Position numbers and translations under genes: made by a program. This document shows positions 12,748 through 48,403 of a stretch of 64,000 nt of DNA, one piece after another. A model generated the notes under the pieces. That model saw nothing but the letters and a program-made list of their open reading frames with translations, had not been told where the DNA came from and made no database searches. Source of the stretch: Eledone cirrhosa (Eukaryota); NCBI GenBank assembly GCA_964016885.1, contig OZ024746.1, forward strand, positions 17,112,001 through 17,176,000, read 5' to 3'. Each line of letters opens with the position of its first letter. Position 1 is the stretch's first letter.

Positions 12748-13235
12748 GGGGCGGGGGGAGGTTCCATTTTCTTTTTTGTTTGTTTTTATTCATTCCTTTT
12801 ATAATGTAACTCGCCCTATGTACTCTCGTATAAGTTGCACCTTTTTCTATGAAAATCTGAAAATCCAACATAAAAACAATCATATGGCTTATCTACTGGA
12901 TTTAAAACAACCCATAATTCAAAGTATATGGTACATTGTAAATGTATGTAAAATGGAGGTGTGACTTAATCATGAATATATACGATATAGCTGAAAATAT
13001 ACTTTTTTATATCCATTTTAAATTACTTCTGACAGTAAATATGATGTATAAAATTCTTTATATGGAAATTTTACAAGATACTGCAGATTTCATTTTAAAA
13101 ATATCTTTATTAATTTAATACATATAAATAATAAACTACAATATACAAATTATTTACAGTAGTAGAGTTTTTTGTATGTAAAATGTGTTACAGACATATA
13201 CAAATGTATAATCCATATTGTATCTTATGTTTCAG

Positions 13236-13404
13236 CACTATGAGAAAGATGCAGATGGCTTATGTACAAGACTTTCTAAACCACTTTGGAAAACCGGTAA
13301 TAATTTCACAACAGTTAATTTTAAGGATTTTGAAAGAGGTGGCTGGGTAATTAATGCAGAATACCTTGAAATTAAAGAACCCATTGGTAAAGGAGAATTT
13401 GGAG
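13236..13404 (+). CDS. Csk: Csk copy A exon (SH2 end, linker, Gly-rich loop)
   Basis: ttcag| HYEKDADGLCTRLSKPLWK...EPIGKGEFG |gtgagt. Matches Csk HY..DADGLCTRL.KP and IGKGEFG. Phase 0 start, so upstream exons are required but not found in the window. Confidence 0.93.
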
Positions 13405-13986
13405 GTGAGTACTAACTATAAAATATGATTCCTTATATGTCATTGTCACAACTGACACAAGTGCAGGTTTAGCTGGCCTTCTATGAGGTTATATCTCAAA
13501 GAAAGTTTCTTGAATATTTTACTGGAAGGACTTCAGTCAAATTATGTTGCTAATTTTCTGGTAATGAATGTTGTGAAAAGAAATTAAATGAGATGGTCAG
13601 GTAACATGTTAAGGTAGGGTGAAAATAACTGGGTGAGAAGCAATAAGGGACTTAAGAAGAAAAGGAAGACCAAGAAAGTCATGGCTAAAGATGATGGACA
13701 AGGAAATGAAATTTGGTGAAAGGGCAAAATGGAGATCACTACTTAGTCTTGAAGATGACAAGGTAATCATTCTGGGGCTGGTGTCCCAATAAATTACATC
13801 CAGTGTAAAAGAACTGCTAATTGTATAGAGATAATGTTGAATTGAGAAGAGTGTTTAAGACTTGTCTGGGACATCACTACCTCTTTAGTTTTGATGCTGT
13901 CATAAAATACACACAGTACACTCTGTAAAGTGTTTGTTGTTAGGAAGGGCATCCAGCTGTAAAAAGTATGCCTAAAATATAACATA

Positions 13987-14819
13987 CTAGCAGAATGGCC
14001 CGGCGTTACTCGGGATTCTAAACATAGATTGGCATGTTTATCCCTCTTTTCTGAAACAGTACAGAGAAGTACGGAATACCTCGGCCTGGAGATGGTGTCT
14101 ACATTTTGTGCTTATAAAAATAATTTGTCGTAGATTGTGCTTGAGAGTAAAATGTTCAACCCACGAAAGCCAAGACGATAGGGTTAAATAAAAAGGCATT
14201 CAACAAACCGAACATGTATTTATTGTGCTATGGTACAATGAAAGCAATAGTTACAGAGCAGTAAGCATGTGGGACTGCAGTGGTGGAGAGCATGAAGGAA
14301 TTTAGTTGGATACTTTTATGGTTACAGGCCCTAACGCAACCAAAATGCTAAACAATGCAGTCCCCGGACAAAAATTTGAAATCTTTTTCAGTTAAGAAAA
14401 TTTGTGAAACATAAGTAATGCATATGCAAAGATTTTAAAAAATCGGTTGGCTACTTCTCAAGTTACAGGCCTTAACGCAACCAAAATGCTTTAAAAAATC
14501 AGTTTTTCGCCTAATGCGGTCCCTGGGGCAAAAACTGAGATCTTTTTTGCTCAAAACACTTTAAACGACATAAGTAATGCAAATTGTGAAGAAATAGCCT
14601 GGAATATTGTTCCGTTATGCTTCAAAAAAGCCTTTAAAGCCTAAAATATGCGGTTTTTCGCCTAATGTGATCCCTAGGGCATCGAAAATTTGAAATATTT
14701 TTTGCTCAAAACACTCACATGACCATAAGTATTACATGTGTAAAGTTTGAAAAAAATCGGTTGGGTGGTTCTCGAGTTTTAGGGAAACAGACAGATATTC
14801 TCTGTTTTATATATATAGA
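13987..14819 (-). mobile_element. Non-autonomous Helitron
   Basis: On the minus strand it starts TC, ends CTAG, and has a subterminal hairpin CCCG-agtaacgc-CGGG. Inserted between A and T with no TSD; the empty site (aacatA|Tgggtgtg) is in copy B near 46725. Confidence 0.9.
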
Positions 14820-14837
14820 TGAGAGTGATGTGGTTAA

Positions 14838-45196: not shown

Positions 45197-46318
45197 CTGT
45201 AATAAAGTTAAAACAGTTATTAAATCTCAGTTAATTCCTTGGTTCTATGATGCAAAGCTGTTAATTTTAAAGTAAATATATATATATATATATATATATA
45301 TATATATATATATATATATATATATATATTTATCTAAAAATCTTCCAGCATAATCTTATGTTAGGACCTTTGTTAAGTTATGTTCCAAAAACATTATATT
45401 CCAAATTATATGAACATCACAGACAGTGTCTTTCATTAGAAAGATGGTATTGAAAAGGTTAATTGCTGCAGTGTATTTTGAACAGTTTTCATTTATTTAG
45501 TTCTATGTGGGTTCCATCACTTTAGCAGGCATCTTGATAAGTGAGGAGACATTTTCATATATTTCAGTCATAAATTTAAAATATTAAAATATTTATAGAA
45601 ACTCACATTACCCATCACAAAACCGACCTTACCCAATTGCACCTCTCTAGGCGATGACACACGACCATGACCTCTGGTGTCACGCAGTAATACAGAAGAT
45701 CGAACTTCCCACGGGTACAAGCCGAAGCTGAAGCATATAGACAATATGCCCCACCCCTCCCACACTGTAAAGTGGACATGTAGGTGATACGGAAAAAAAG
45801 ACACCCAGCACTCACTGTAAATGAGGTTGGTGTTAGGAAGAACATCCAGCTGTAGAAATCAAACCAGAATCAGTTCCTGCATGAGCAAGACAAGGTCAGC
45901 CGACTGGACACTGCCCACAACAAGGCAACCCGTCTAATCCATGCTAGCGTGGAAGAACGGACGTAAAACGATGATGATGATGAAAGTCCTCAAAATATCT
46001 TCAATGTAATTTATAATAAAAAATGTTAAGTTACATATTTTAGTAGTTCAGTTGTTTAGTTAATGATCATAAGGTTGCGAGTTCAATTCTGTGGTGCAGT
46101 GTGTCCTTCAGCAAGACACTTTATTTCAGATTGCTCCATTTCACTCAGCCTTTCCACATCTTTATCATGCTTAATCTCTCTGAGATCTGACCTACATTAA
46201 GAGTACACGTGTCTGTGGAATACATATCATCAGAATCAATGGAGGTCTAACATACAAGATAGTAAAAGATGACAGGGAAACTTATGACAAATAAAAATCA
46301 AAAATTTCAACAACATAC

Positions 46319-46421
46319 GTCATCACGGATGCTTCTTTAAGAAAAGTCTGCGCTGCTCTGTTCCTATCTTTTAGTTGTTTCACAGCAACCAGTTGTTGGT
46401 TGTAGCAGCCTTTATATACAT
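46319..46421 (-). CDS. Csk: Csk copy B exon (subdomains I-III)
   Basis: Reverse complement of 17528-17630; AG/GT intact. Confidence 0.9.
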
Positions 46422-47307
46422 CTGTTGATAGAAAAATCAAGAAAATATGAGAATTAACCCTTTTAATACCAACATCCTTGAAACAGCCCCTGCTTACAAA
46501 GCTGTTTGTTTTAAAGTGTTTATATTCATCTAAAAACCTTTCCAGTAATATACTAGGATATTTATTCAATTAACTTTAACATAATCGAAAAAAGAACCGC
46601 AATCATTGTTATTTTATATCCAGTTTCCATACTGGCATGGATTGGATAGTTTTTTTATGGTCTGACTCAAGTTGTATCAAGAGTTACTATCCTACTGGTT
46701 AGTTTAGTTGACCACATCACACCCATATGTTATATTTTAGGCATGCTTTCTACAGCTGGATACCCTTCCTAACAACAAACACTTTACAGAGTGTACTGTG
46801 TGTATTTTATGACAGCATCAAAACTAAAGAGGTAGTGATGTCCCAGACAAGTCTTAAACACTCTTCTCAATTCAACATTATCTCTATACAATTAGCAGTT
46901 CCTTTATACTGGATGTAATTTATTGGGACACCAGCCCCAGAATGATTACTTTGTCATCTTCAAGACTAAGTAGTGATCTCCATTTTGCCCTTTCACCAAA
47001 TTTCATTTCCTTGTCCATCATCTTTAGCCATGACTTTCTTGGTCTTCCTTTTCTTCTTAAGTCACTTATTGCTTCTCACCCAGTTATTTTCACCCTTCCT
47101 TAACATGTTACCTGACCATCTCATTTAATTTCTTTTCACAACATTCATTACCAGAAAATTAGCAACATAATTTGACTGAAGTCCTTCCAGTAAAATATTC
47201 AAGAAACTTTCTTTGAGATATAACCTCATAGAAGGCCAGCTAAACCTGCACTTGTGTCAGTTGTGACAATGACATATAAGGAATCATATTTTATAGTTAG
47301 TACTCAC

Positions 47308-47476
47308 CTCCAAATTCTCCTTTACCAATGGGTTCTTTAATTTCAAGGTATTCTGCATTAATTACCCAGCCACCTCTTTCAAAATCCTTAAAATTAACTG
47401 TTGTGAAATTATTACCGTTTTTCCAAACTGGTTTAGAAAGTCTTGTACATAAGCCATCTGCATCTTTCTCATAGTG
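47308..47476 (-). CDS. Csk: Csk copy B exon (SH2 end, linker, Gly-rich loop)
   Basis: HYEKDADGLCTRLSKPVWKNGNN...IGKGEFG; AG/GT intact. Confidence 0.9.
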
Positions 47477-48403
47477 CTGAAACATAAGATACAATATGGA
47501 TTATACATTTGTATATGTCTGTAACACATTTTACATACAAAAAACTCTACTACTGTAAATAATTTGTATATTGTAGTTTATTATTTATATGTATTAAATT
47601 AATAAAGATATTTTTAAAATGAAATCTGCAGTATCTTGTAAAATTTCCATATAAAGAATTTTATACATCATATTTACTGTCAGAAGTAATTTAAAATGGA
47701 TATAAAAAAGTATATTTTCAGCTATATCGTATATATTCATGATTAAGTCACACCTCCATTTTACATACATTTACAATGTACCATATACTTTGAATTATGG
47801 GTTGTTTTAAATCCAGTAGATAAGCCATATGATTGTTTTTATGTTGGATTTTCAGATTTTCATAGAAAAAGGTGCAACTTATACGAGAGTACATAGGGCG
47901 AGTTACATTATAAAAGGAACAAAAACAAACAAAAATGAAAATTGGAAAAAAAAAAATTGATATATTTATTAAGTGGAATTAATAAATACTATACAGAAGA
48001 AAAGGAAAAAGAAAATGAAGAAGAATCATGCATATCAAAGCAGTTGATATATTTATTAAGTGGAATTTATATATTAAAAAAAAAAACCACTTGTTTAGAA
48101 AAACAGAATTTTTCCTCCGAGCAAATTTTGACCTTTCTTTTCTTCCATAGCAAAAAAAAAGACAATAGATAGTATTACACAAAATATTGTAGCAGCAGCA
48201 GCAGCAAACAGTTGTTCCTTATTGCACTTAACACTGCATAGCAGCTTACAGAGTGACATGACAACCATTCATGCTGAGAATGACACAAATACTTAACAAA
48301 TAGAATATGAAAAGTAGGCGATAATTTATGAGAGAAGGATAGAAATATAGATAGATAGAAGAAGAAATAGAGATAGAAAGACAGAGAAAACTGTAATATG
48401 TAC

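Follow-up and report, generated by a model that had tools for sequence, protein, structure and literature searches.

Csk is the brake on Src kinases, is strongly conserved and is usually single. Chimeric duplicates such as the anti-Lepore globins and Drosophila Sdic and jingwei carry the 5' end of one gene on the body of another, with new regulation and domain loss. The insect Csk entries list SH2 and kinase Pfam domains only, which is a precedent for SH3 loss. Concerted evolution has been described for the human red and green opsins, where, in the part of the account available to us (PMC3924837, Fawcett and Innan), transposable-element insertions and large indels (insertions or deletions) restrict gene conversion, and islands of difference lie at amino-acid sites. 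Here we analysed a Csk locus of Eledone cirrhosa in a window of 64,000 nucleotides (assembly GCA_964016885.1, contig OZ024746.1; G000:C6:17112001-17176000), extended by 100 kb on each side to 264 kb within the 3.0-Gb genome; these 264 kb contained no N. The locus holds three Csk-type genes, termed A, B and C; coordinates are those of the window, and negative ones lie to its left. In the reading that we favour, with a probability of roughly 0.6, B is an SH3-less chimera with an A-like body and a C-like first exon, inserted in inverted orientation between A and C and kept about 99% A-like by conversion. That the A/B pair is real, old and converted is very probable.

As in the opsins, the neighbours A and B are closer to one another than to orthologues, show a divergence gradient at large indels and have amino-acid differences in local islands (as far as the available part of PMC3924837 allows the comparison). 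Unlike the opsins, the arms are inverted, B has two partners (A for the body, C for the head), and the islands are confounded by large indels, with selection unproven. Like the anti-Lepore globins and Sdic/jingwei, B joins one gene's 5' end to another's body, but both of its donors are flanking Csk paralogues, and B is inverted and still exchanging with its parent. The insect SH3-less Csk is the sole Csk, whereas the octopod SH3-less copies adjoin a full-length gene. The mechanisms are of known kinds, and their combination in this three-gene cluster is new as far as the literature found.

Copy A is the ordinary octopod Csk and the orthologue of described Csk (rat 1K9A; Octopus RefSeq XP_014781685 and XP_029633373). 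The Csk exons of the window were 96-100% identical to those of Octopus vulgaris Csk, and the exons of A 97-100% each. The parts of A are as follows.

-42811..-42695 and -16603..-16503, plus strand: SH3 exons of A, left of the window
-8755..-8530, plus strand: SH2a exon of A, left of the window
-2982..-2763, plus strand: SH2b exon of A, left of the window
1..13235, plus strand: 3' part of the 16-kb SH2b-linker intron of A
13236..13404, plus strand: linker and kinase-start exon of A
17528..17630, plus strand: kinase exon K1 of A
18708..18866, plus strand: kinase exon K2 of A, with the docking motif RSRGR
19296..19395, plus strand: kinase exon K3 of A, with HRD
20547..20642, plus strand: kinase exon K4 of A, with DFG and APE
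21115..21201, plus strand: kinase exon K5 of A, ending in PYPRI
23643..23819, plus strand: last exon K6 of A, with the stop codon; homology to B continues in the 3' untranslated region (UTR) as far as 24330

No SH2 exon of A was found inside the window; both were located outside it. Copy B lies on the opposite strand.

57441..57481, minus strand: predicted first coding exon of B, with ATG, 13 codons and a phase-2 GT donor, its frame agreeing with that of the SH2 exon
48624..57440, minus strand: predicted intron 1 of B, 8.8 kb
48404..48623, minus strand: SH2 exon of B, of SH2b type, differing from A at 5 of 220 bases; homology to A ends at 48838
47308..47476, minus strand: linker exon of B
46319..46421, minus strand: exon K1 of B, identical to A
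45038..45196, minus strand: exon K2 of B, identical to A
44509..44608, minus strand: exon K3 of B
43262..43357, minus strand: exon K4 of B
42874..42960, minus strand: exon K5 of B, ending in PYQRT (P388Q and I390T in rat Csk numbering)
41206..41400, minus strand: last exon K6 of B, whose final codons have given way to a repeat-family tail (41227-41183)
40702..41205, minus strand: 3' UTR of B, which from A 23871 onward shows about 99% identity to A, with an (AT)n run at its end

The two copies are tail to tail, with homology ending at 24330 and 40702, 16.4 kb apart. The initial annotation had described such a pair about 16 kb apart, with intact frames and splice sites in both copies, and our results agreed with it on both points: each of the eight coding exons common to A and B has AG/GT sites and an open frame. 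The similarity was far above chance (blastn E=0 for kilobase-long blocks), and close copies of the SH2b and last exons were found in the genome in A and B only (33 and 20 candidates scored). Self-alignment gave five inverted blocks, four inside the window and a fifth reaching outside it.

A -3197..-2335 (plus) and B 48838..47987 (minus): 14 substitutions in 851 columns; holds the SH2b exon, with the A side outside the window
A 12762-13986 (plus) and B 47947-46726 (minus): 12 substitutions in 1221 columns
A 17245-20693 (plus) and B 46704-43211 (minus): 15 substitutions in 3448 columns
A 20872-21400 (plus) and B 43203-42670 (minus): 16 substitutions in 529 columns
A 23516-24330 (plus) and B 41517-40702 (minus): 22 substitutions in 783 columns, the remodelled stop-codon zone included (this zone, 23805-23870, was left out of the later divergence statistics)

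Near-identity indeed extended across introns, but in these five blocks and not in the two given previously. All sequence upstream of 12763/47945 had been called unrelated, which was incorrect, as B 47987-48838 matches A -3197..-2335 outside the window; the break at 12763 is only apparent because the SH2-linker intron differs by 15 kb in length. The middles of the last introns (about 21430-23515 and 41518-42610) did not align, and identity decayed at the block edge, with 8 substitutions in 21338-21397, both as first described. Inside the window the blocks are separated by an A-only 0.83-kb element with a 2.4-kb minisatellite, by a 178-bp deletion in B, and by the fills of the last intron.

13987..14819, minus strand: A-only Helitron-like element, 833 bp, with TC...CTAG ends and an A/T insertion site
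14841..17267, plus strand: 19-bp minisatellite, about 125 units in A and one to two in B
20694..20871, plus strand: 178 bp present in A and in a contig of run X5; B has a deletion here, filled by a templated insert of 7 bases (43210-43204)
47947..47987, minus strand: B junction in the place of 15.1 kb of A intron; it contains a short templated insert, copied from about 75 bp away
21401..23515, plus strand: A-only last-intron fill, old fragments resembling short and long interspersed elements (SINE-like/LINE), 67-90% identical to other copies in the 264 kb
41518..42669, minus strand: B-only last-intron fill, old repeats 76-89% identical to the nearest scored copies, single-copy in the genome and present in part in X5

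Short templated inserts at junctions are the trace of end-joining or template switching. On the B side there are three gaps, about 17 kb in all, which spare all 8 exons.

The initial annotation had proposed an older pair homogenised by arm-to-arm conversion, and this proposal was supported by the letters of run X5, the age of the Helitron-like element and the gradient of divergence. X5 comes from another organism. Of its eight pieces listed, six fall in blocks common to A and B; compared with B they show differences at 210 of 2338 bases (about 9%), as against 11 of 2331 between A and B there, so the paralogues are closer within the genome than the same DNA is across organisms. X5 has the letters of B at 21194, 21200, 21212 and 21214, the first two of which are derived amino-acid changes: the K5-end motif PYPRI was present in 90 of 96 fetched proteins and PYQRT in none. 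X5 contigs also span the 5' boundary of B and lie on its intron fill. These B-diagnostic letters and B-only flanks, in one run, point to a duplication older than the species split. B would have been in place before that organism, about 9% diverged, separated, and also before the A-only Helitron-like insertion.

Helitrons are recognized by TC...CTAG ends and by insertion between A and T without target duplication, and the A-only element shows both features. B keeps its exact empty site, and the base A precedes the element in 17 of 20 other copies. The element differed from the column majority of its family at 30 of 831 positions (3.6%) and from the 20 other copies by 5.5-8.8%, these copies being a median of 6.9% apart, whereas its flanking blocks showed non-coding A/B differences of 0.95% and 0.43%. 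Sequence comparison thus makes the element, by estimate, several times older than its A/B flanks imply.

The third line of evidence is the distribution of the differences. Non-coding A/B divergence was 0.9% overall. It reached 22/877 at up to 100 bp from large indels and 29/4797 beyond (P=2e-6), 14/441 (3.17%) at up to 50 bp, about 0.5% beyond 200 bp, and 11/2241 at more than 800 bp. Divergence was heterogeneous among blocks (P=5e-7), and substitutions clustered within them, with 24 close pairs against 12.3 expected (0 of 5000 permutations); the longest run without a substitution was 903 columns. Conversion tracts would overwrite exons and introns alike and stall at large indels. B is likely older than its 99% identity implies, since conversion likely keeps overwriting it. 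A recent partial duplication, about 1% old and followed by indels without conversion, agrees with the overall non-coding difference, with the two B junctions that resemble one-step deletions with templated inserts, and with the absence of the 178-bp deletion from the X5 contig. It is at odds with the B letters in an organism 9% diverged, with the empty site of an element that differs by at least 5.5% from the closest copy aligned, and with the strong gradient and clustering. It was largely refuted and is very unlikely; of the recent partial duplication with rearrangement first offered as the other option, the partial and rearranged nature of B fits and the recent age does not.

It had also been expected that conversion would keep the kinase exons alike while the N-termini diverged and SH2 grouped by paralogue. 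K1 and K2 are identical and the SH2 exon has 5 differences, which at first sight agrees. However, 5/220 in SH2 is like the 2/87 in K5 and the 4 in K6 before its remodelled end, and the SH2 exons of A and B group together, with octopus SH2b. SH2 is as alike as the kinase exons, the very outcome that the initial annotation had set against its own reading, and we give practically no weight to this version. The N-termini differ because B lacks the SH3 exons and likely has the first exon of a third gene. A false duplication, in which A and B are two haplotypes assembled side by side, was also considered. Both forms of the 178-bp site are present in runs X1 and X2, which may come from the very sample that was assembled. 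Within one sample their contig depths, 10.9 and 8.3, roughly add up to the 15.9-16.4 of shared sequence, as those of alleles also would; contig depths can neither rank expression nor give copy number. B, however, lacks the SH3 exons, has a different head common to C, and carries 11 derived amino-acid changes, its letters recur in the second organism, and no N interrupts the 264 kb. An assembly artefact of this kind is extremely unlikely.

The first exon of B lies within a head module shared with gene C.

57403..57806, minus strand: 5' head module of B; its inverted copy at 66050-66454, beyond the window, is the head of gene C
66380-86873, plus strand: gene C, beyond the window, with 9 exons, open frames and intron positions as in Csk

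The two modules differed by 21 substitutions in 388 columns (94.6% identical), and only these two copies were found in the genome. On sequence grounds, the first exon of B likely comes from a C-type head and its body matches A, which would make B a chimeric gene. The genomic prediction joins the first exon and the SH2-kinase body in frame into a protein of 389 residues, with 358 of 383 aligned residues identical to A, and its kinase domain nests within Csk as sister to A (93/89) among octopod Csk. The SH3-SH2-kinase architecture is not that of B, an SH3-less Csk derivative: no SH3 exon was found in 48624-71318 or 86900-164000, and the best scores 5' of B were 13 and 10, compared with 179 and 212 for the exons of A itself. 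Compared with Csk, B lacks SH3 and Arg68 and has a foreign first exon, the changes P388Q, I390T and M405L, and a repeat-derived tail. This tail remodels the stop codon, so that the C-terminus is 6 residues longer. No B-type protein occurred among 285 fetched; the B-like motif of P0054 was a chance match in intron read-through. A broken non-LTR (long terminal repeat) retrotransposon with duplicated ends and minus-strand frames resembling reverse transcriptase occupies about 50600-56430 in predicted intron 1. Donor-like sites lie on the opposite strand of the shared module (57530-57670 and 66150-66345), hinting at a bidirectional promoter or at an antisense exon facing the other gene. A hairpin repeat family adjoins the outer side of both head modules (57806-58035, 6019-6285, 61311-61443 and 65761-66000), and its copies beside the two modules are more diverged than the module core.

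Gene C is intact and fast-evolving. Its product has 374 residues, 143 of 373 identical to A (nonsynonymous divergence, dN, 0.57; synonymous divergence, dS, about 1.3); the catalytic loop reads HCD, and the glycine loop is degenerate. No SH3 was detectable for C, the scans 5' of it giving background only. A word-based search with its SH2 exon found nothing among 9 candidates scored, which is weak evidence. A protein search covering 1.84 billion representatives returned P0182, the Argonauta hians CSK-like protein GAB1600531.1 of 374 aa, which is SH3-less, has the HCD loop and starts with a short first exon of the C kind (ending in DWR). It is likely, by sequence, the Argonauta orthologue of gene C; the two are 54% identical in the kinase. 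They grouped at 100/100; each forms a long branch, but they have the head, HCD and indels in common. The trees could not place the C lineage, owing to long branches. Its accession directly follows that of Argonauta Csk, GAB1600530.1, and the consecutive accessions suggest that the Argonauta Csk and C-like genes are adjacent. The top matches to the Argonauta C-like protein were two uninterrupted tyrosine-kinase frames of 564 and 426 aa, C306:76401-77123 and C13:10768932-10769678 (G000), possibly intronless kinases. The krill protein P0004 has two Csk-like SH2 domains on either side of an SH3 and may be a mis-joined model.

The gene order in the assembly is A, inverted B, C, and the spacers share repeat-like matches only. 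Template switching probably copied the SH2b-to-3'-UTR segment of A and the head of C in reverse, because the two spacers share only repeats. Unequal crossover with inversion, which is possible and fits the gene order, was not adopted, as the duplicated spacer was not found. Taken by itself, the younger, chimeric origin of B is moderately probable. B might instead belong to the C lineage as an ancient SH3-less paralogue; A would have overwritten its body over tens of millions of years, and C its head, with a few C-lineage residues kept by selection. Among the 11 residues derived in B, 5 agree with the C-like protein of Argonauta, 4 with C and 6 with one or the other, where 1.4 would be expected (BLOSUM-matched, P about 6e-4, post hoc); ordinary Csk rows (n=21) match at 0-2 sites. 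Both last-intron fills are old and unrelated, and the first introns of B and C share nothing outside the head module, as an ancient origin would have it. Against this, all 11 residues are one base step from the A codon, the codon being otherwise unchanged, without an extra synonymous change, which argues for parallel change over very old relics but does not settle it. Conversion must also have carried entire introns and repeats throughout, a B-type protein is absent among the proteins fetched, the Argonauta Csk and C-like accessions are consecutive, and an X5 contig has the letter of A at the I132L site, where bubble popping may hide the B form. The ancient paralogue is unlikely. Micro-conversion from C to B as a source of the C-type residues was rejected, the matching tracts being only a few bases long.

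Our results also showed that B is transcribed and spliced from K5 to K6. In run X4 a 122-base contig joins the end of B K5 to the start of B K6, with four B-specific coding changes in cis, and an A-type contig is present beside it. X4 was taken as RNA solely from its GT..AG-spliced contigs, no run with matching sequence being recorded as RNA. An edited A transcript was ruled out as the source, since none of the four changes is A-to-G. The restriction-site-associated (RAD) run X6 left the unique parts almost uncovered.

Up to the remodelled end, 12 nonsynonymous and 3 synonymous changes separate A from B (dN 0.014, dS 0.012, dN/dS about 1.1); 11 of the amino-acid changes are derived in B and 1 in A. 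B keeps Lys222, Glu236, HRD and DFG, the docking residues Arg279, Ser280, Arg281, Arg283 and Phe382, and also Arg384 and Arg389 (rat numbering); the activation-loop tyrosine is absent, as expected of Csk. The docking residues are those given for Csk in the part of PMC10016382 available to us, which also states that loss of SH3/Arg68 lowers Csk activity more than tenfold. The alphaF-alphaG loop is part of the Src interface in the accessible portion of PMC5547543, whose two loop basics we infer to be Arg384 and Arg389. P388Q and I390T of B flank Arg389 in this loop, and M405L falls where Met was present in 94 of 94 fetched proteins. B is predicted to be a weak Csk with altered Src docking because SH3 and Arg68 are lost and Pro388 and Ile390 changed; its protein, expressed under the promoter of C, would have low Csk activity, no coupling to SH3-bound phosphatases and a changed alphaF-alphaG loop.

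Whether the differences of B are selected is evenly balanced. B may be old and converted and yet a functionless transcribed passenger, its frames mended by conversion from A, with neutral private changes that survive near conversion-blocking indels; this concerns function only and is compatible with the chimeric history. The dN/dS ratio, the changes at the invariant P388 and M405, and the position of the K5 and K6 changes beside the unalignable last intron point this way. The 12 nonsynonymous changes are not above the overall non-coding rate (7.6 expected, P=0.09) but are in excess when sequence distant from indels is the baseline (5.1 expected, P=0.007). P388Q and I390T are common to the second organism, the head module is conserved at 94.6%, about 17 kb of B-side gaps spare every exon, and C-type residues recur in B, all of which speak for function. 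A passenger is thus a serious possibility, at slightly less than even odds. That B is a functional arm of two palindromes, its body homogenised with A and its promoter and first exon with C, with C-lineage residues and the altered loop kept by selection, is unlikely.

Several points weigh against the old, converted and chimeric B that we favour. The cross-species dating comes from one run and mainly from one 179-base contig, and an A-type X5 contig was not seen at the B-letter site among the contigs displayed, where contigs pop bubbles. The X5 SH2 contig has A letters at three B-derived positions and the 178 bp is retained in X5, so several B changes may postdate the split, or bubble popping hides them. 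Of 3743 Helitron candidates 40 were scored, and the 20 aligned came from the top of the list, which leaves room for a closer copy. The raised divergence beside indels can be due in part to local mutagenesis or to alignment error. The splice between B exon 1 and SH2 stays a genomic prediction. A dN/dS near 1 fits neutral decay, conversion alone can keep frames open, and K5 and K6 flank the unalignable last intron. Finally, a young chimera explains the 6 of 11 C-type matches only through parallel change.

This one locus shows three routes of Csk diversification: an alternative SH2 exon, an old paralogue without SH3, and a chimeric copy under conversion. It offers a dated natural experiment on what preserves differences under conversion, selection or large indels. 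A duplicate at 99% identity can be older than that figure suggests by a factor of about ten or more, and may be taken for a false duplication. Should B or C compete with Csk for Src or scaffolds, octopods would have new Src-signalling regulators in them; if the two-palindrome reading were true, octopods, with C and SH2a, would have divided the Src brake, usually single, among several forms that are wired differently.

The alternative SH2 exons belong to copy A. SH2a and SH2b are homologous, with 37 of 73 residues alike (51%), and both run from phase 2 to phase 0. Translation of A stops after 159 residues with both exons and after 110 with neither; among 17 octopod Csk proteins examined, 9 had SH2a, 8 had SH2b and none had both. 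By these frames and proteins, the two are mutually exclusive exons. SH2a is letter-identical in protein in O. bimaculoides, O. sinensis, O. vulgaris and Argonauta hians, and no counterpart in squid or other molluscs was found among 132 candidates. It occurs in RefSeq isoforms and is hence already annotated, yet apparently not discussed in the literature. No published work on cephalopod Csk duplicates or an alternative SH2 exon was found in the sources covered in part, with subscription journals and genome-paper supplements outside their scope.

Several repeats were observed around these genes. The stretch 2366-2671 has 73-83% matches to intron sequence at 12858-12968, immediately upstream of the linker exon, as older local duplicates or a repeat. 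There is a 1.7-kb (AT)n tract within 3458-5172, a 25-bp minisatellite at 11792-12748 with a G-run at its end by the 12762 boundary, and a 264-bp tandem repeat at 63257-64048. Inverted repeats resembling foldback elements or miniature inverted-repeat transposable elements (MITE-like) lie at 38338-38843, 40319-40724, 49518-50424 (in predicted intron 1 of B) and 61613-62088, and one of them abuts the 3' breakpoint of B.

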